A stretch of DNA of 64,000 nucleotides, from positions 256,001-320,000 of the IMG/VR virus record IMGVR_UViG_3300022719_000071. One strand, 5' to 3'. Within the stretch, counting starts at the first letter, position 1; each line of letters opens with the position of its first letter. This DNA comes from a virus (Duplodnaviria; Caudoviricetes). Under the pieces are notes generated by a model. It made no database searches. It saw nothing but the letters and a program-made list of their open reading frames with translations, and was not told the DNA's origin. Below, one piece after another: positions 8,219 through 49,593 of this stretch. A program made the translations under genes and the position numbers.

Positions 8219-11013
8219 TCGATGGACGTGTTCATGTTTCGTCCTACAATAATCAAGGTGAGAGGCAGATAACCACTCATTTACCTCCGTACGTCTTCTA
8301 CTATGAAGATAACAATGGCACTCACAAGTCCATCTACGGTGACTCTCTCAAGCAAAAGAGGTTTACTGATCGCAACAAATTCTACAGGGAACTTGAACGT
8401 ACTAAGGCTAGAAGCTTGGTATTCGAATCCGATGTTAACCCTGTCTTTCGTTTGTTGGAAGAACGCTTTCCAAACAACGACACTCCACCGTTGAATATCT
8501 CGTTCATTGACATCGAGTGTGATAAGGATCCATCACGTGGATGGTCCAACGTATCTGATCCATATGCCATTGTCAATGCCATCACTGTCTACAACAAGTG
8601 GCAAGACCAATACTACACCATCGCCGTTGCCCCACCGACATTGACCCGTGATCAAGGAGAAGCGTTACTTGCTGATGATTCCATTGATGATGGGTTTGGA
8701 TCTATGACTATGGACGAGGGATACTTTGTTGTTCATAGCGAAGCTGATTTGTTATCCGCCTTCCTAGACCTAATCCAAGATGCTGATGTGCTTACAGGGT
8801 GGAACAGCACATTTTTTGATCTACCCTATATCATTCAGCGCATTCGTATTGTTTTGGGTGGTGAGAAAATCGACAAGATACGAAAGGAGGATGGAAGTGA
8901 AAATAATCCATTCCGTCCATCTGACCGTAGCAAACCACATCTGGAAAGGCTGAACCTATTCAAGTGTCAACCAGAGATGCGTATGGTGGAAAGGTTTGGT
9001 AACGCAGAGAAGAGCTTCCTGATTTTCGGTCGGGTGCATTTGGATTATCTGGAGCTATACCGCAAGTTCACCTTCGAGGAACTTCACAGCTACACACTCG
9101 ATGCCATTCTAAAAAAAGAGGTTGACCAGACCAAGGTTGTTTACGAAGGATCGCTTGATCAGCTATACCGCAACGATTTTAGAACATTTGTTGCGTATAA
9201 CCGCCAGGACGTTGCTGGTCTTCATCACATGGATGACAAGCTGAAGATGATTGAACTTGCAAACACGATGGTTCATATGGCTGGAGTAACCTTCGATAAG
9301 GTGTTTGGCTCCGTGGCCATCATCGAGCAAGCCATTCTCAAAGAACTTCATAGACAAAACATGATTTGCTTCGACCGTGATGTGACTGATAAGCACGAAA
9401 CTGTCCCTGGTGCTTTTGTCATTGATCCTGAAAAGGGATTGTACGAATGGGTATGCTCGTTCGATATCAACTCTCTGTACCCATCGGTTATTCGTGCTCT
9501 GAATATTAGTCCGGAGTGTGTAGTAGGTCAGTTAGATTTGTCCGAGACTGAGGAGAAGTTATCACACCACGTCGCATCCGGAATGACAGCAACAGAAGCT
9601 TGGGGTCAGTTTACTGGTGTTTTGGAGTATCATCACATCATTGATGAAACTGATGACATGGTGACGTTGTGTCTCGAAGGAACAGATGGAGAAATCACAG
9701 CTTCGGCTAAAGAATGGAAGAAGAGGATTAGGCAGAACGGATGGGGCATCAGTGCCAATGGCACGGTGTTTGAACTGGACCGTGAAGGCATTGTTCCATA
9801 CTGCTTGACTAAGTGGTACAAGCAACGTGTGGAATGGAAGAACGAGGCCAAGAAGTATGGTATGGCCCAGGTTAATGAGAAGGATAAGGACAAGCTTTCT
9901 GAATTGAAGGCTCAAGAAAAATACTATGACATGATCCAGTTGGTCATGAAGATCTTCTTGAACTCAACGTACGGAGCTTATCTGAACCGGTTCTTCCGCT
10001 TCTACGATCCAAGGCTAGGTAAGAGCGTAACACTCACCGGACGTGTGATCACCAAGCACATGTGTCGATACGCCAGCAAGCTAATGACCGGAAACTATGA
10101 ATTCGATCAAAGAGCAGTTATCTATGGTGACACGGACAGCACGTATTGCACACTCAAGTGGTACATGTCCAAGAATGGAATTGAACCCACTGTAGAAAAC
10201 GCAGTAAAGATTTCCGATTGTATAGGGGAAGAGATCAACTCATCGTTCCCTGACTTCATGGATGAGAGTACCATGATCGGAAGAAGGCGTGGAAAAATCA
10301 TTGAAGCCGGTCGAGAAGTTGTTGGTCGCCGTGGTCTCTTCAAGGACAAGAAGAAGAGATACGCCATTCACGTTGTAGACCTGGAAGGCAAGCCCGTAGA
10401 CAAGATGAAGATCATGGGCATGGAGATGCGTCGAAGTGATACTCCTGTTATCATCCAGGACTTCTTAACGGATTGCGTCACTGCTGTTGTTCGTGATGAT
10501 AAAGACTACGAAGAAATCCGTAGTATGGTTGACGAATTTCGTGAGAATGTATTCCGTAAGCTACCTGAATGGAAACGTGGTACCCCTGGTCGTGTGTCCA
10601 AGCTTGCATTCAACTCCAGGCGTCTACGTGCATACAACGAAGCCAAGGCACAACAAATTGTCAACGTGGCAAAGCCCAATGTACACTACTCAGTGATTGC
10701 GGCTAACAACACAAACCTTCTGATGGAGCAGAACAAAGAGCACCGATGGGACATCATTCGAGACGGTGACAAGATTGAAGTGTTGTATCTAAAGCCTAAT
10801 CCGTTCAACATGAATGCCGTAGCCATCAAAGTGGGAGAGACGTACGTCCCGAAGTGGTTTCAGGAACTTCCCTTTGATAACGAAAGGCATGAGAAAAAGA
10901 TGATCAACCAGAAGATGGACAACGTTCTTGGCAGCATCATGAATTGGTCATTCGAACCTATCACAGATTTTCGTGACGAAGTGTTTAAGGAAGTAGATTT
11001 GCTAGCGCTATAG
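8197..11013 (+). CDS. Family B DNA polymerase with 3'-5' exonuclease
   Basis: Exo I DIE, Exo II GWNSTFFD, Exo III YNRQD; pol motifs SFDINSLYPS, KIFLNSTYG, YGDTDS. Confidence 0.97.
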   Translation: MYVDAKLIDGRVHVSSYNNQGERQITTHLPPYVFYYEDNNGTHKSIYGDSLKQKRFTDRNKFYRELERTKARSLVFESDVNPVFRLLEERFPNNDTPPLNISFIDIECDKDPSRGWSNVSDPYAIVNAITVYNKWQDQYYTIAVAPPTLTRDQGEALLADDSIDDGFGSMTMDEGYFVVHSEADLLSAFLDLIQDADVLTGWNSTFFDLPYIIQRIRIVLGGEKIDKIRKEDGSENNPFRPSDRSKPHLERLNLFKCQPEMRMVERFGNAEKSFLIFGRVHLDYLELYRKFTFEELHSYTLDAILKKEVDQTKVVYEGSLDQLYRNDFRTFVAYNRQDVAGLHHMDDKLKMIELANTMVHMAGVTFDKVFGSVAIIEQAILKELHRQNMICFDRDVTDKHETVPGAFVIDPEKGLYEWVCSFDINSLYPSVIRALNISPECVVGQLDLSETEEKLSHHVASGMTATEAWGQFTGVLEYHHIIDETDDMVTLCLEGTDGEITASAKEWKKRIRQNGWGISANGTVFELDREGIVPYCLTKWYKQRVEWKNEAKKYGMAQVNEKDKDKLSELKAQEKYYDMIQLVMKIFLNSTYGAYLNRFFRFYDPRLGKSVTLTGRVITKHMCRYASKLMTGNYEFDQRAVIYGDTDSTYCTLKWYMSKNGIEPTVENAVKISDCIGEEINSSFPDFMDESTMIGRRRGKIIEAGREVVGRRGLFKDKKKRYAIHVVDLEGKPVDKMKIMGMEMRRSDTPVIIQDFLTDCVTAVVRDDKDYEEIRSMVDEFRENVFRKLPEWKRGTPGRVSKLAFNSRRLRAYNEAKAQQIVNVAKPNVHYSVIAANNTNLLMEQNKEHRWDIIRDGDKIEVLYLKPNPFNMNAVAIKVGETYVPKWFQELPFDNERHEKKMINQKMDNVLGSIMNWSFEPITDFRDEVFKEVDLLAL

Positions 11014-16357: not shown

Positions 16358-16442
16358 AATTCTTGACTTCTTTCTGAACCAGTGCTAAATATACTGCACA
16401 GTATTTGCCCTTGTGGCTCAAGTCCATTCATAGCAGGCGTAT

Positions 16443-19796: not shown

Positions 19797-20083
19797 TGCT
19801 AACGAAAGTCGAAGTTCATAACGACTGGATGTTCATCGACTCTGTAGCAGAGAGTATCGAAGATTGCCTGGACAACGATTGGGCCTCGGAAGGAGTTGAT
19901 TACACCTGGGTAAACCCTAAAGTTCTACGATTGTTGATTCCTCCGAAGGTATCCTATGCCGAGGTAATCGAGGACATTAGTAGACTAATAGTTCAACACC
20001 AGGATTCTATGACCTTCATTCCCATTCGACTCATTCGACCTTTTTCCATCCAACCCCTTGACATCCTACCCCTGGAATGGTAA
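19793..20083 (+). CDS. Hypothetical protein
   Basis: ORF in operon. Confidence 0.5.
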   Translation: MMLTKVEVHNDWMFIDSVAESIEDCLDNDWASEGVDYTWVNPKVLRLLIPPKVSYAEVIEDISRLIVQHQDSMTFIPIRLIRPFSIQPLDILPLEW

Positions 20084-20121
20084 ATTACCCACGTCGCTCG
20101 GGACAATAACTCTCCTGGGAT

Positions 20122-20161
20122 GACACATAGATTAACCTAGACACGTAGATTAACTTAGACA
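20122..20161. repeat. Tandem 18-bp repeat (GACACRTAGATTAACYTA, about 2.2 copies)
   Basis: Read directly. Confidence 0.8.
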
Positions 20162-20315
20162 AAGATATTAACGGAGACAAAGAGAAACACGACCGGAAAC
20201 ATTGAATTCAAAGCGGTCTCCTATGCGTAGATGATTGGGTAGAGACCGGCCCGTAGAAAATGACAAACAGGTGTTTCCAACAAGGTCGTACCCCGCAATG
20301 GGAGGAGTGGGTGAG

Positions 20316-20472
20316 GAAGCCGGGGGGGTAAAACCCCCGGCGACCTCTAACTGAAACGAAACAGGCAAAAAGCCAAAGGAGGACGCCTTCTAAACGCAAA
20401 GCAACGTGAAAGCCGTTATTTTGATTAAAGAAGTTGTTTGAAACAGGTGAAGCCGGGGGGTAAAACCCCCGG
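20316..20472. repeat. Two dispersed copies of hairpin GAAGCC-G6/7-TAAAA-C5-GG (20316-20340, 20449-20472)
   Basis: Read directly. Confidence 0.85.
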
Positions 20473-20484
20473 TGGATCCAAACC

Positions 20485-20515
20485 TTGACTTTTGAATGAG
20501 AAGGTACTATAAATA
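20485..20515 (+). promoter_or_regulatory. Dual promoter (sigma70 -35/-10 overlapping T4-late TATAAATA) for the tRNA cluster
   Basis: TTGACT-17 nt-TATAAA; TATAAATA at 20508-15. Confidence 0.75.
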
Positions 20516-20520
20516 CTACC

Positions 20521-20571
20521 ATGAACATTCGACGCCACAAATTTCATAATAACCGCATTAGCATCAGCTAA
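20521..20571 (+). CDS. Candidate leaderless leader peptide MNIRRHKFHNNRISIS
   Basis: ATG at the predicted +1; 10 of 15 codons decoded by tRNAs of the downstream cluster. Confidence 0.5.
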   Translation: MNIRRHKFHNNRISIS

Positions 20572-20697
20572 GCCACGGCATCGTCTTGCCCTGGCTCAGC
20601 GAAGTCGGGGAAAGCCCTCACCAACCTCCCTCCCAGACTATAAACCCAACATGGTGACCCCTTTCCGGGGGTAACAGAGTGGTGATGACATAACAAT

Positions 20698-20774
20698 GTC
20701 CCTGTAGCTCAACTGGACAGAGCACCGGTCTACGAAACCGAAGGTTAGAGGTTCGAATCCTCTCAGGGATGCCA
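20698..20774 (+). tRNA. tRNA-Arg(ACG)
   Basis: Cloverleaf, CT-ACG-AA, CCA. Confidence 0.95.
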
Positions 20775-20783
20775 AGAGAAAAG

Positions 20784-20861
20784 CCTGGGGTGGCTCGTCT
20801 GGTAGAAGGCACCCGCCTGATAAGCGGGTACAGGAAGGTTCGATTCCTTCCCCCAGGACCA
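20784..20861 (+). tRNA. tRNA-Ile(GAT)
   Basis: CCTGGGG/CCCCAGG acceptor, CT-GAT-AA, CCA. Confidence 0.92.
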
Positions 20862-20870
20862 AACAAGCAT

Positions 20871-20988
20871 TGCTTGAACTGGGGTTGAAAGTAGGCAAGG
20901 TAAGTGATCATAGCCGTGCTGAGGATAGACCGGGGAATGACCCTCGTTGCAGAGTCGGCGTTGGAAGTACAGAGCCCCCACCCAAGCA
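20871..20988 (+). ncRNA. Candidate ~118-nt structured RNA between tRNAs
   Basis: Ends pair (TGCTTG/CAAGCA, GGGGTT/AGCCCC); distal GCCG/CGGC and GAGG/CCTC stems. Confidence 0.4.
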
Positions 20989-20992
20989 TTAT

Positions 20993-21069
20993 GCCTCCGT
21001 AGCTCAGTTGTATAGAGCGTCTGGCTTCGAACCAGAAGGTCGTGGGTTAGAGTCCTACCGGGGGTGCCA
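20993..21069 (+). tRNA. tRNA-Arg(TCG)
   Basis: Cloverleaf, CT-TCG-AA, T loop TTAGAGT, CCA. Confidence 0.92.
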
Positions 21070-21127
21070 AAACGGCAGGGAACGTCGCCGTAAACAAGAC
21101 GTGACAAGCGGGAGAGACCGCAGCAAT

Positions 21128-21200
21128 GGTGAAGTTAAGATAGCGGTTAATCCTCCGCACTGTGACTGCGGCTACACCGGTTCGAATCCGGTACTTCACC
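21128..21200 (+). tRNA. tRNA-His(GTG)
   Basis: G-1:C73, CT-GTG-AC loop; CCA not encoded (CCG). Confidence 0.9.
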
Positions 21201-21333
21201 CCGAATTTGGGATTGTAGCAAATGTTGGCTTGCTCCCGGCTCTTAACTAGTAAACAGTTTAAGACACAGAGGAATTCGATAGATACAAACGCCAGAGACG
21301 AATAATCGTTCCTGGGAAACAAGTAATAGAAAT

Positions 21334-21409
21334 GGACTCGTAGCTCAATTGGCAGAGCACCCGGCTCTTAACCCGGGGGTTGCAGGATCGTTGCCTGCCG
21401 AGTCCACCA
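21334..21409 (+). tRNA. tRNA-Lys(CTT), atypical T loop
   Basis: CT-CTT-AA; T loop ATCGTTG; CCA. Confidence 0.88.
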
Positions 21410-21414
21410 AACAT

Positions 21415-21489
21415 GGCTCTGTAGCTGAGATGGATTAGCGCCTGTCTGAAGAACAGGAGAGGTTGGTTCGATTCCAACCGGAGCCACCA
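21415..21489 (+). tRNA. tRNA-Phe(GAA)
   Basis: CT-GAA-GA loop, CCA. Confidence 0.92.
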
Positions 21490-21494
21490 AACAT

Positions 21495-21563
21495 GGGTCG
21501 ATTGTGACTGATTATCGTTCTCACAAGGCCGTGGTCGTGGGTTAGAGTCCCACCTTACCTCTA
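21495..21563 (+). pseudogene. Degenerate tRNA
   Basis: Intact T arm GTGGG-TTAGAGT-CCCAC but broken D, anticodon and acceptor pairing. Confidence 0.55.
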
Positions 21564-21623
21564 CAATGGGTAAGGTAGATCACGTAAAAACGTCGGTTAC
21601 GCCCACTTATCCGTGTTTGATTT

Positions 21624-21699
21624 GGGTCCATAGCTCAATTGGCAGAGCTGCTGACTCTTAATCAGTAGGTTGGAGGTTCGAGTCCTCCTGGACCCACCA
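21624..21699 (+). tRNA. tRNA-Lys(CTT)
   Basis: Canonical cloverleaf, CCA. Confidence 0.95.
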
Positions 21700-21751
21700 A
21701 GGAGATGCAATGCTGACTTGATCAATTGGCACTCGGTTATGCAGTGACGAT

Positions 21752-21868
21752 GGGATCGTAGTTCAACGGTAGAATACTGGACTTTTACACTTCGGGGTGG
21801 CAAATTTAATTGGATGCGGCTCCGTCTAATCCAGGAGATGTGGGTTCGAATCCACGCCGGTCCCACCA
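21752..21868 (+). tRNA. tRNA-Lys(TTT) with 41-nt insertion (21788-21828) in the anticodon loop
   Basis: GGGATCG/CGGTCCC acceptor, D arm, CTGGA/TCCAG anticodon stem, CT-TTT-A[insert]A, CCA; T stem slightly irregular. Confidence 0.8.
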
Positions 21869-22947: not shown

Positions 22948-23199
22948 ATGATAGTCATCAAAATAGAACTGTGGCCTTTAGGATTTGAGTCCCGCAAAAA
23001 GGAACTTGGTCGCATGCACATCATCAACAAGGGCAGTGGGTCACTGATTCGTGGTGACTATAGTGTCAAGGTGATGAGGCGTGGCACCAAAGATAAGGTT
23101 CAGCGAACTGGTGAGGTTACCAGCTATCCTCGTGAATCCTATAGCGTATGGCGTCTTGTCATGCGTGCTTTGAAATCAGCATTCCCGGAAGAGAAATGA
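22948..23199 (+). CDS. Hypothetical protein
   Basis: MIVIKIELWPLG...VWRLVMRAL, a recurrent phage pattern. Confidence 0.7.
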   Translation: MIVIKIELWPLGFESRKKELGRMHIINKGSGSLIRGDYSVKVMRRGTKDKVQRTGEVTSYPRESYSVWRLVMRALKSAFPEEK

Positions 23200-46965: not shown

Positions 46966-49593
46966 ATGAACAAACCAAATCTGCTCTTCGAAGGGCTCAG
47001 GATCCCCAGAAAGGTGTTCGATCAGTTCCTCTCCAAAGTGGAGGATGAGAAACTATTTCGACTTGGGTTCGAGGTCGAGTTCTATGCCGATGATGATTCT
47101 CTGAGTGGTAATCAAGTTGCCGACTTAAGTGAGCTTTCCGTTCGGGAAGCCATGGAATACTTCTATGAGCACGATATCAATATAGATAAGATGTATGAGT
47201 GGGCATCCGACCATGAGGAAGAATTACTAAGAGAAGCCGGATACACCCGTGAAGAGATTGAGAAAGAAATCATTGATGACTGGTTTGATGATAATCCCGA
47301 CTGGTACCAGGAATATCTAGAAGAAGAAGGCGAGTGGGATGACGAGGAGGAAGAGCCTGCTGAGGATGCCACTGATGAAGGGACTGCCAGGGAGGAAGTA
47401 GAGCTTGATATTCGTAACGGCAGAAAGGTCTGGTCTCGATACGATAACTTCGATAGTAAAATCAATGATAGAATTAGCGAGATTTTTGATAACGTTGATA
47501 TCGCTCAGGCATGGTGGGAAGATAACCGCTGGGAACTTATGCGTGAAAATAATTGGGAGCTAAGTGACGAGTATCGCCATGATGAAGTGGACGAGGACAT
47601 CATTCGTGAATATGGTGGCGGTTTAGAAGGCATCGCTAATGATCTGAATGATGTAGTAGATGGTTATGTGTCTTCGGATGAAGGAGGATACTCTTCGAGC
47701 ACCGAGAATTGGGTAGTCAAACCAGACGGCTCGCTTTCTGAAAACGGTGTTGAGATCGCATCTCCGATATTTCCATTCTTTGCTGGCATCGAAGAAATGG
47801 AGAAGGTGTTTGATTGGATTGATCGCAACAGATATTACACTGATGAATCCACGGGACTTCACGTTAGTATGTCCTTCACCGAAGAAAAAGCATTCGATGA
47901 TATCGATTGGGTGAAAGTTGCCTTGCTATCCGGTGAAGAATATATGCTTCAGTTATTCAACCGATCTACTAATCAATATACTACGTCCCAATTAAAGAAC
48001 ATGCAGGTTGCTGCTAAGAAAGGCAAGTTGGGCGATTTGAATAGCATGCGTTCCTTCCAAGAACTCAAAGATAAGTTTGCTGATGGCATCGCAACCGGTG
48101 AAAAATACAGTTCGTTCAATCTATCAGACTATGGAAGCGGTGGTCGTGTGGAGTGGAGAATCATAGGTGGACATCAATACCATCAACTGTTCAATACTGT
48201 AAAGGACAATGTTTTGAAGATGGCATTCGCCATGTACATAGGTTCGGAACCCGAGTTGTTCAAAGAACAATACTTGCGGTCATTAGGGAGACTGCTTTCT
48301 CGTGTTACGGCGACTAAAGATGATCCTTTGAAAAGTAAAAGCGAACTTCTATATGGTAATGATGAAGAGGCTGCAATCCTATCTCGCAATCCATTGTACA
48401 AGTATGCCGTCCAGCTTTTGAAAAGTGACAAATCTATGATGACCGCATACAAAAACGTTACACTGGCTGGTGAGAGAATGCGAGATGAAGATGCTAATGC
48501 AAAACAGAGATTCGAATTCACTAAAGCCATGGGTGTCTTTGCTATGCTAGTCAGTAAAGTTGAAGCTACTGAATATACTAAGAAGCTATTCCCATACTTG
48601 CAAGAAGAAGCGTACACCGAAAACCTAACGGTCCAACGGATAAGAAAAGTAGCTAGAAGAACTGCCAATCACTACGGTTATACTGGTGCGGACTTCAAGG
48701 ATGATTTGCATGTGGATCCCGTAACTGCATTGGCAACTCATTATCCTATAGCTGATCACATATCCGGTCTTAATCTATTAACTCGTGCTGCGGTATTGTT
48801 TGCTGATATGGATGACACTCACCAGCAACGAAAGATGGAGTTCATGAAGTATGTTCCTGGACTTCGAAAGTTCACAGCACAGTCCACCACTGAACTCATT
48901 CTAGCAATTGCTCTTTCTACCAAGAAGGACCAACAAGAACCAATGGCAGGATCTATATCTGACGCTATTGTATCATCAGTTGAATCCAATAATCTGGATG
49001 AGAAGAACTTGCAATTCATCAAACAACTGATGGATGATATTGGTGTTGATGCTCAGGATGTTATGACCAATACGAACTATGACAGAAAGAAGGAAGTTAT
49101 CCGACAGGTACTAGGTTATGACATTGAGAAAGTAGCCGTCACAGCCGATAATGCATTGCAAGCGATCTCTCCTGAGTTGATTCCAGAAGTCAGTCTGGCC
49201 AAGATCATTACCGGACTTCAACATAACGATGCAGACGAACAATCGGTGGCGGCTTCATTGGCTGCTCTTTGGATTGGAAGGATCTCTGATAAATTAGAAC
49301 GTGGAATATTCATCTCAAGTAGAGCCGTAAAAGGATTAAAGATATTCATAGTGACCTATAATCTAATACAACGTTGGAACGAAGCGGGAATCTTCGATGC
49401 ACCTATTGCTAAGAAAGTAATGAAAGTCCTAGATTTCGTAGACCCAGAACTAGCCATAACAGTTTCCCTATCCAGGATTAAGGCTAGATTGGGTCCGGAG
49501 CAACCTGTTTTCCAGACCCCTCCGAGCAATCCTGTGGCCAACGTTACTGCGTGGACTCCGGAAGTGGCAGCACGTGGTACCGAAAACCCTTGA
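46966..49593 (+). CDS. Large amidoligase-2 domain protein with acidic insert
   Basis: GFEVEF, KPDGSL, GVEIASP, STGLHVS, YSSFNL, VEWRIIGG; TAAATA at 46954. Confidence 0.78.
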   Translation: MNKPNLLFEGLRIPRKVFDQFLSKVEDEKLFRLGFEVEFYADDDSLSGNQVADLSELSVREAMEYFYEHDINIDKMYEWASDHEEELLREAGYTREEIEKEIIDDWFDDNPDWYQEYLEEEGEWDDEEEEPAEDATDEGTAREEVELDIRNGRKVWSRYDNFDSKINDRISEIFDNVDIAQAWWEDNRWELMRENNWELSDEYRHDEVDEDIIREYGGGLEGIANDLNDVVDGYVSSDEGGYSSSTENWVVKPDGSLSENGVEIASPIFPFFAGIEEMEKVFDWIDRNRYYTDESTGLHVSMSFTEEKAFDDIDWVKVALLSGEEYMLQLFNRSTNQYTTSQLKNMQVAAKKGKLGDLNSMRSFQELKDKFADGIATGEKYSSFNLSDYGSGGRVEWRIIGGHQYHQLFNTVKDNVLKMAFAMYIGSEPELFKEQYLRSLGRLLSRVTATKDDPLKSKSELLYGNDEEAAILSRNPLYKYAVQLLKSDKSMMTAYKNVTLAGERMRDEDANAKQRFEFTKAMGVFAMLVSKVEATEYTKKLFPYLQEEAYTENLTVQRIRKVARRTANHYGYTGADFKDDLHVDPVTALATHYPIADHISGLNLLTRAAVLFADMDDTHQQRKMEFMKYVPGLRKFTAQSTTELILAIALSTKKDQQEPMAGSISDAIVSSVESNNLDEKNLQFIKQLMDDIGVDAQDVMTNTNYDRKKEVIRQVLGYDIEKVAVTADNALQAISPELIPEVSLAKIITGLQHNDADEQSVAASLAALWIGRISDKLERGIFISSRAVKGLKIFIVTYNLIQRWNEAGIFDAPIAKKVMKVLDFVDPELAITVSLSRIKARLGPEQPVFQTPPSNPVANVTAWTPEVAARGTENP

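Follow-up and report, generated by a model that had tools for sequence, protein, structure and literature searches.

We describe the leader of a tRNA operon in a large bacteriophage genome and, in particular, a short upstream open reading frame (uORF) that opens this leader. The analyzed stretch of DNA (hereafter the window) is 64,000 nt long and comprises bases 256,001–320,000 of the 360,469-bp phage record IMGVR_UViG_3300022719_000071 from IMG/VR (GC content 47%). Coordinates are those of the window; positions in the whole record are marked with the word "genome". The family B DNA polymerase of this phage, designated G000, is 34–37% identical to those of the jumbo phages Ralstonia RsoM2USA, Agrobacterium Atu_ph07, and Xanthomonas XaC1. 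According to ARAGORN, the record includes 42 tRNA genes and a permuted transfer-messenger RNA (tmRNA). All statements below on the leader, its peptide, and its regulation are derived from the nucleotide sequence alone.

The promoter and the 177-nt leader of the operon occupy positions 20485–20697 of the plus strand. The promoter itself (20485–20515) consists of the −35 element TTGACT (20485–20490), a 17-nt spacer, and the −10 element TATAAA (20508–20513) followed by TA. Next comes the uORF (20521–20571), which includes 16 codons, encodes the peptide MNIRRHKFHNNRISIS, and ends with the stop codon TAA at 20569–20571. The first-pass annotation had reported this promoter with an ATG at 20521 behind it, and both are present as described. 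The stop codon is located in the 5' arm of a 12-bp hairpin (hairpin A, 20567–20600; −17.9 kcal/mol), which belongs to the minimum-energy fold. Further downstream are a C-rich, G-poor tract with 19 C and 1 G in 36 nt (20615–20650), a candidate loading site for Rho, and a segment made up of an inter-tRNA spacer and what is left of a truncated tRNA-Asn, namely its 5' third with the acceptor and D arm (20634–20687). The tRNA genes begin with tRNA-Arg(ACG) and tRNA-Ile(GAU), which form a 167-nt unit (20698–20861). They continue (20993–21865) with Arg-UCG, His-GUG, a tRNA with an 8-nt anticodon loop (21334–21409), Phe-GAA, Lys-CUU, and Lys-UUU, the last of which carries an insert of ~41 nt (21752–21865; 45.5 bits in Rfam). 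All these features are on the plus strand.

The assembly of the window is incomplete at ~20863, after tRNA-Ile, where a tandem repeat has been collapsed. Over 2,414 nt, through the end of tRNA-Ile, a contig from JGI (L084) matches the window at 99.96% identity. Past this gene the contig continues with a tRNA-Lys(UUU) that has no insert, tRNA-Asn(GUU) (55.9 bits in Rfam, with a 13-nt extra arm), and a second tRNA-Arg(ACG). In three public runs the 167-nt sequence of Arg-ACG and Ile-GAU is a separate unitig branched at either end, and the depth of the Lys/Asn path equals that of its flanks in runs X1 and X2 (12.1 vs 12.5–13.7 in one run, 5.1 vs 4.7 in another). The genes absent from the record occur at full depth in all three runs. 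The data fit one order only: leader, Arg, Ile, Lys-UUU, Asn, Arg, Ile, followed by the remaining cluster. The Arg–Ile unit is thus duplicated in the real genome, its copies being separated by Lys-UUU and Asn-GUU. No other Asn tRNA was found in the genome record.

The uORF reads ATG, AAC, ATT, CGA, CGC, CAC, AAA, TTT, CAT, AAT, AAC, CGC, ATT, AGC, ATC, AGC, and TAA. Ten of the 15 codons after the start fit tRNAs annotated in the window, as the first-pass annotation had counted (binomial P = 1.7e-4), and only two of 1,758 short ORFs genome-wide reach this score. Resolving the collapsed repeat adds Lys-UUU and Asn-GUU to the operon, and the match therefore rises to 13 of 15, with both AGC codons as the sole exceptions. 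For the latter match the binomial P is 1.4e-6 to 1.7e-6; mononucleotide shuffles give at most 2e-5, and dinucleotide shuffles, which are very conservative here, give 6e-4. The codons read by the operon tRNAs stand for Arg, Ile, Lys, Asn, His, and Phe. The remaining two frames over the same 45 nt have only 3/14 and 4/14 matches, i.e., the enrichment is confined to the uORF's own frame. It had also been claimed that codons 3–9 are all read by downstream tRNAs. The match itself is real, and one assignment needs correction: the ordinary Lys tRNA at 21624 has the anticodon CUU, not UUU. Thus within the window AAA is read by the interrupted Lys-UUU alone; the true operon also holds an intact Lys-UUU.

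In a strain variant (run X3) the six nucleotides GCATTA are inserted in frame after 20554 and add an Ile codon (ATT) and a Ser codon (AGC). The same strain carries a 64-nt duplication of 20421–20484 and four single-nucleotide polymorphisms, all of them 5' of the promoter. The variant is compatible with a coding constraint and is no demonstration of one.

Cases in other phages were found by scanning IMG/VR for a promoter followed by an ATG; most hits were long leaderless genes, and among the others were tRNA operons that have short ORFs. Together with the leaders of the present phage, the sample includes eight uORF–operon cases from four phage contigs, or seven without the discovery case (the leader at 20485, G000-1). 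Codons were matched to tRNAs under two decoding schemes, four-box wobble and strict wobble.

The second leader of the same phage (G000-2, genome 253722) has an ATG at +7 that opens MQRRYPVALCLPS. Only two tRNAs, Leu-UAA and Pro-UGG, lie behind it, and 3–4 of 12 codons fit, the matching ones being TTG, TTA, CCT, and CCA; the stop codon is again in the 5' arm of a hairpin. The uORF peptides of the two G000 leaders have no paralogues in the genome.

Three more cases come from G011, a complete 168-kb phage (GC content 36.5%) whose polymerase shows only remote similarity and for which no cultured relative was found. All three TATAAATA promoters of G011 are located 5' of tRNA operons and have an ATG at +8 or +9. 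The first uORF, MNKNFNILLPLPLLYPLAG (also written NKNFNILLPLPLLYPLAG), precedes Pro-UGG, Tyr-GUA, Leu-UAG, Leu-UAA, and Leu-CAA; 10 of its 18 codons fit under four-box wobble, and it has ten consecutive Leu/Pro/Tyr codons. The second, MMIVVSNLSFRENEGR, is followed by Glu and Asp tRNAs and has 2 fitting codons of 15. The third, MNKFLLTFISTTSCFTGTSSTGRCL, is rich in Thr, Ser, Cys, and Gly, and its operon includes Gly-UCC, Thr-UGU, Cys-GCA, and Ser-UGA (13 of 24 codons fit, or 10 of 24 under strict wobble). In this operon ARAGORN had called Gly and Cys only. It was re-examined because the peptide is Thr/Ser-rich, and Rfam detects there a tRNA with the anticodon UGU (33.8 bits) and a long-arm tRNA with the anticodon UGA (31.6 bits). 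The record of this phage (L284, IMGVR_UViG_3300019487_000003) also has, beside its tRNA operons, a tmRNA (1822–2187; 132 bits) and a bacterial-type RNase P RNA (8629–8905; 188 bits).

The remaining cases are G013-1 (GC content 30%), where a promoter of the same type with an ATG at +8 opens MSTIHTQPERDTEERFFLR before Glu-UUC and Asp-GUC (4 of 18 codons fit, with an E/D cluster in the peptide), and L380, where a 17-codon ORF is followed by an intrinsic terminator and then by Lys-UUU (2 of 16 codons fit). No antiterminator is predicted for the leader terminator of L380.

When every uORF was scored against every operon, the true pairing was among the best 4 of 40,320 permutations. A uORF whose codons co-vary with the tRNA set, which the first-pass annotation had suggested looking for in related phages, is seen in the second G000 leader and in two unrelated phage contigs. 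Excluding the discovery case leaves the true pairing among the best 4 of 5,040 permutations (~8e-4). Combining the seven non-discovery cases by Fisher's method yields P = 3.4e-6 if four-box wobble is allowed and P = 1.8e-4 under strict wobble. In shuffles that preserve composition, P is 1e-4 to 3e-4 for the third G011 leader, 0.016 for G013-1, and 0.03–0.05 for G000-2, and the restriction of the enrichment to the own frame holds in every significant case. In an unbiased screen of 97 uORFs located 5' of 83 tRNA clusters, among the loci analyzed by then, the leaderless uORFs of G000 rank first and second. Judged from these sequences, the link between uORF codons and operon tRNAs is very unlikely to be due to chance, and it co-varies across phages; the sample is small.

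The promoter of the leader is one member of a class spread over the genome, (C)C-TTGACW-N17-TA(T/A)A(A/T)A-TA, which is apparent from a listing of all TTGAC-N17-TAnnnW sites and is found almost exclusively before stable-RNA genes. Its −10 element ends in A, the usual last base of a −10 element being T. With a slightly relaxed −35 element there are 17 sites TTGACW-N16-18-TAWAWATA among just 42 TAWAWATA sites genome-wide, the latter number being expected at ~70 by a hand estimate from base composition. Sites of the form TTGAC-N18-TAnnnA occur 27 times vs ~9 times for controls with a scrambled −35 element. Among the 17 class promoters, 11–13 are directly 5' of tRNA or tmRNA genes: they precede Met, Ala, Arg-CCU, Cys, Glu, Val/Gln, Leu, and Gly tRNAs and the cluster in the window, one stands before an unusual tRNA-Tyr, and another drives the permuted tmRNA. 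Class promoters are located on the plus strand at 16363, 20485, 27933, and 49971 of the window and at genome 244345, 251373, and 253722, and on the minus strand at genome 11640, 27217, 32672, 37932, 43777, 48056, and 79383. In most cases the tRNA starts 10–18 nt past the hexamer. Long leaders of 184–231 nt follow three class promoters only, namely 20485, genome 253722 (Leu-UAA, Pro-UGG), and genome 251373 (Asp, Asp). Outside G000, in five records of unrelated IMG/VR phages, 12 of 14 sites with the class motif are located 5' of tRNA operons. An interpretation of TATAAATA as a T4-type late promoter class in this phage was dropped; TAWAWATA is not over-represented.

An ATG is the seventh nucleotide past the −10 element at 10 sigma-70-like promoters of G000 vs ~1.6 expected, and eight of these ten ATGs open ORFs of 64–266 amino acids. 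Such leaderless protein genes are found, for example, on the plus strand at 22948 (an 83-codon ORF) and genome 158150, and on the minus strand at genome 128780, 53274, 333034, and 33453. Given how many leaderless genes this phage has, an ATG placed at the predicted start could plausibly serve as a start codon, and we infer that the uORF is translated. The earlier claim that transcription starts at the ATG of a leaderless uORF agrees with this and with the lack of a Shine-Dalgarno (SD) sequence before the ATG. The 5' end is a predicted one; the ATG is the eighth nucleotide after the hexamer, which suits a start at its A, whereas the leaderless genes mostly use the seventh.

As a separate observation, a unit composed of a TATAAATA promoter, a leaderless M-N-(T/K) ORF of 17–31 codons, and a canonical intrinsic terminator recurs in contigs L259, L328/L369/L378, L377, and L380. 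Some of these units have tRNA genes behind them and others do not.

Within the leader, an alternative hairpin B (20588–20595 with 20603–20610; −12.3 kcal/mol) shares bases with the 3' arm of hairpin A. It is predicted only with the 5' arm of A masked, which mimics a ribosome at the stop codon. In the predicted folds hairpin B ties up a G run that otherwise touches the C tract. Hairpins A and B are mutually exclusive, and neither is a terminator. The first-pass annotation had placed the stop codon in two mutually exclusive stems. One of them is the 12-bp hairpin A; the other, a 5-bp stem (20558–20562 with 20567–20571), is complementary and weak (−3.9), and it is absent from the minimum-energy fold. 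Another hairpin, at 20657–20672, is a remnant of the acceptor and D arm of tRNA-Asn. The sequence after hairpin A is GAAGUCGG, and that after the relic hairpin is UAACAGAG. Rfam gives no match within 20084–20697 at E up to 1. The sole feature common to G000-1, G000-2, G011-1, G011-3, and G013-1 is a hairpin that is formed by, or overlaps, the last codons and the stop codon of the uORF.

These data suggest the following mechanism. Transcription from a stable-RNA promoter of the phage would start at or beside the A of the ATG, and the RNA would begin with a leaderless ORF of 16 codons. This ORF may act as a cis-acting leader peptide, the speed of its reading reporting the supply of exactly those tRNAs that the operon encodes, and the speed of the ribosome may then feed back on the operon yield. 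The position of the ribosome would matter: one that finishes the ORF must melt the stop-codon hairpin, and one stalled earlier would leave it intact. A candidate output in G000 is premature, probably Rho-dependent termination at the C tract, gated by hairpin A vs hairpin B; the evidence for this step is weak. A possible trigger is a shortage of host tRNAs or their cleavage by anticodon nucleases.

We put at about an even chance the proposition that the uORF is a functional leader ORF that senses tRNA supply, and such a leader would probably be a new kind of leader-peptide sensor. A broader proposition seems to us possible and falls somewhat short of an even chance: that large phages have a new class of leaderless mini-ORFs located at the 5' ends of tRNA operons, written in the codons of their own tRNAs, measuring several tRNAs, and adjusting the output of replacement tRNAs. 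Since the other leaders share just the stop-codon hairpin and have no common output module, we treat the sensor as supported and leave its output step and sign aside; the Rho part and the stem switch are not established.

A number of observations weigh against the sensor, beginning with its output. A scan of the plus strand over 20521–20697 revealed no intrinsic terminator between the uORF and the first tRNA, and the unpaired probability of the C tract is 0.70–0.74 with the ribosome absent or stalled vs 0.88 with the ribosome at the stop codon. Consequently, the stem switch proposed in the first-pass annotation, for which the accessibility shift is just ~0.72 to 0.88, could not be upheld. The C tract is short and rare, as 36-nt windows of its composition occur only twice in both strands of the whole 360-kb genome. 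Its reading as a Rho utilization (rut) site is not supported. In an alignment with contig L084, the segment 20634–20687 matches the Lys–Asn spacer plus the initial 25 nt of the intact tRNA-Asn, and ~62 nt are deleted. Since 20634–20650 is a spacer shared with this contig, 17 of the 36 nt of the tract are ordinary inter-tRNA spacer. A C-rich tract is missing from the leaders of G011 and G013, whose uORF layout is the same. Part of the G000 leader is debris of a recent rearrangement.

The uORF itself raises further points of this kind. Its ATG is at +8 and not at +7, the position seen in the clear leaderless genes, and an ATG at +8 occurs 2 times in this genome vs ~1.6 expected, i.e., at chance frequency. 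Since an ATG at +8 or +9 is also present where the tRNA starts within 10–100 nt, the ATG alone proves little. The majority of the tRNA operons of this phage have leaders of 10–18 nt and no uORF, and the third long leader, that of the Asp–Asp operon, has just a GTG at +7 and no Asp codon in frame. Among the seven non-discovery cases, G011-2 and L380 are not enriched, and the match of G011-1 hinges on four-box wobble (P = 0.007 vs 0.2 under the strict scheme).

Finally, no orthologous leader was found in any close relative. Three neighboring proteins have no relatives in viral contigs, and no homologues of the 95-residue upstream protein were found. Relatives of the peptide deformylase (70–72% identity) are on contigs of 1.7–1.8 kb that end short of the leader. 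A degenerate pattern of the uORF peptide had no match in viral contigs. The distant jumbo relatives (~41% DNA polymerase identity) have few such promoters and none of them 5' of tRNAs, and in the cultured relatives RsoM2USA, XaC1, Atu_ph07, SCTP-2, and Vibrio 2.275.O the promoter motif is wholly absent. A search of bacterial genomes for the promoter pattern with ATGAAY gave no tRNA-linked case.

Much of this could be read as the signature of a chance ORF: the tRNA promoter would be real, the leader would be rearrangement debris, and the ATG and the codon match would be coincidences picked from many windows. The 3' third of the leader is indeed a truncated tRNA-Asn with generic spacer, tRNA relics abound in the cluster, which differs from strain to strain, the +8 ATG is no more frequent than expected, and there is neither a terminator nor a convincing switch. 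Moreover, a match of 10/15 at P ~2e-4 is expected a few times across so many scanned windows. However, the match climbed to 13/15 after the repeat was resolved, the enrichment is frame-specific, G011 and G013 have the same layout with different matching codon sets, and the pairing test holds without the discovery case. We therefore regard a chance origin as unlikely.

A generic translated mini-ORF is a less probable explanation still, and one that we would not favor. It might shield the untranslated 5' part of the transcript from Rho or RNases, or produce a small peptide, its codons being no sensor. Leaderless translation is common in G000 and behind TATAAATA promoters in many phage contigs, where the ORFs are mostly long, and some short leaderless ORFs with their own terminator have no tRNAs behind them (L377, L259). 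Several uORFs start with M-N-(K/T/I), which resembles an initiation context rather than a sensor. But the peptides are alike in the first two or three residues only, and an ORF of this kind does not predict that codon content would track the downstream tRNA set.

The region upstream of the leader has features of its own. A promoter TTGACA-17-TAAATT at 20058 is followed by ~400 nt without an ORF (20058–20480). In this stretch are three direct repeats of 18 nt and a CCGGGGG-loop-CCCCCGG hairpin that occurs twice here and nowhere else in the genome. Also present is an SD-like hairpin (20360–20393), which is 86% conserved in L086, a relative with 70% identity. These features bear on a role of the leader at the RNA level, independent of translation, as a structured 5' precursor or a co-transcribed small RNA; specifically, the C tract (20616–20634) would pair with a G tract (20300–20316) of the transcript from the 20058 promoter, and the resulting processing stalk would bracket 20317–20615. 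Such a role seems improbable: the leader folds better than shuffles (z = −3.0), 20093–20697 even more so (z = −3.9, with the long-range G/C helix in the minimum-energy fold), the duplex reaches −29.8 kcal/mol (equalled by 2% of random windows), and the upstream element is partly conserved in L086, but the frame-specific codon enrichment and the co-variation in other phages are left unexplained, the strain variant alters G20310 in the helix with no compensating change, and there is an internal promoter within the proposed stalk.

Several further observations concern the tRNA cluster and other stable RNAs of this phage. The tRNA at 21334–21409 has the 8-nt anticodon loop CUCUUAAC, in which ARAGORN reads a four-base anticodon CUUA that would pair with UAAG. 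The stop codon of the uORF has the context UAA-G, and the +1 frame beyond it is open for 33 codons; a link to the CUUA tRNA is probably a coincidence. The ~130-nt spacers of the cluster contain tRNA relics at 21203–21245 and 21497–21560; one of them is a 5' half with the anticodon loop of the next tRNA, and the other has a T arm like that of Arg-UCG. The tRNA cluster turns over quickly.

The permuted (two-piece) tmRNA is encoded on the minus strand at genome 78,941–79,376 (L090; Rfam RF04321, 95 bits) and has a class promoter. A tRNA-like gene on the minus strand at genome ~47,955–48,040 (L089) has an acceptor stem, a T arm, CCA, and the loop CUGUAAA (GUA, Tyr), together with an aberrant D region; ARAGORN missed it. 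An amber suppressor tRNA (CUA) is located on the minus strand at genome 22,700–22,777, and another one is found in the relative L101; in 168 long ORFs the stop codons are TAG in 7, TAA in 95, and TGA in 66 cases. The 231-nt leader of the Asp–Asp operon includes an SD-preceded GTG mini-ORF, (M)TECEDSDGDL (L088, genome 251,463–251,498), with three Asp codons in 10, a post hoc find of doubtful significance. On the minus strand at genome 32,460 a class promoter is followed by an SD-led ORF for a hydrophobic Gly-rich protein of 43 residues, a hairpin, and then tRNA-Gly(UCC).

If the uORF is indeed a sensor of tRNA supply, it would be the first feedback device for tRNA genes and a leader peptide that senses several tRNAs at once without a classical terminator. 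The in-frame codon signature provides a simple rule for finding more cases. It can also predict unannotated tRNA genes, as it does with tRNA-Asn here and with tRNA-Thr and tRNA-Ser in G011. We know of nothing on how phages regulate their tRNAs. The first-pass annotation knew of no described multi-tRNA attenuator, and our literature searches, which were not confined to phages, likewise found no tRNA operon with a leader peptide or uORF in front of it. The reported use of phage tRNAs to counter anticodon nucleases (PMC10264068, PMC11555353, PMC12409363) offers a biological motive only.

The closest known parallels are the attenuators trpL, hisL, pheL, and pheM of pheST. They resemble the phage leader in that the codons of the leader ORF are cognate to what the operon supplies, so that the speed of the ribosome can be a report, and in that an RNA hairpin is located at the end of the leader ORF. 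In contrast to them, the genes that would be regulated here are tRNA genes, six amino acids are involved with no run of a single residue, the ORF is leaderless, and there is no intrinsic terminator and no clear antiterminator. With tnaC, mgtL, and toiL (upstream of topAI, PMC12121999) the leader shares a uORF followed by untranslated C-rich, G-poor RNA and alternative hairpins that would be influenced by the position of the ribosome. The toiL leader responds to stalling at several different codons (PMC12121999). Unlike in these systems, the downstream genes are untranslated, and thus there is no step at a ribosome-binding site; the change in exposure is small. The likeness is weak and limited to G000, half of the tract being generic spacer.

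We take the mycobacterial poly-Cys leaderless ORFs and IlvL of C. glutamicum to be leaderless short-ORF attenuators. As in the phage leader, their ORF is at the transcription start without an SD sequence and is enriched in the relevant codons. Leaderless regulatory small ORFs are known from Actinobacteria (PMC4633059). Those attenuators control bacterial amino-acid pathways and respond to a single amino acid or a single amino-acid family, whereas the ORF described here precedes a phage tRNA operon and would sense several tRNAs.

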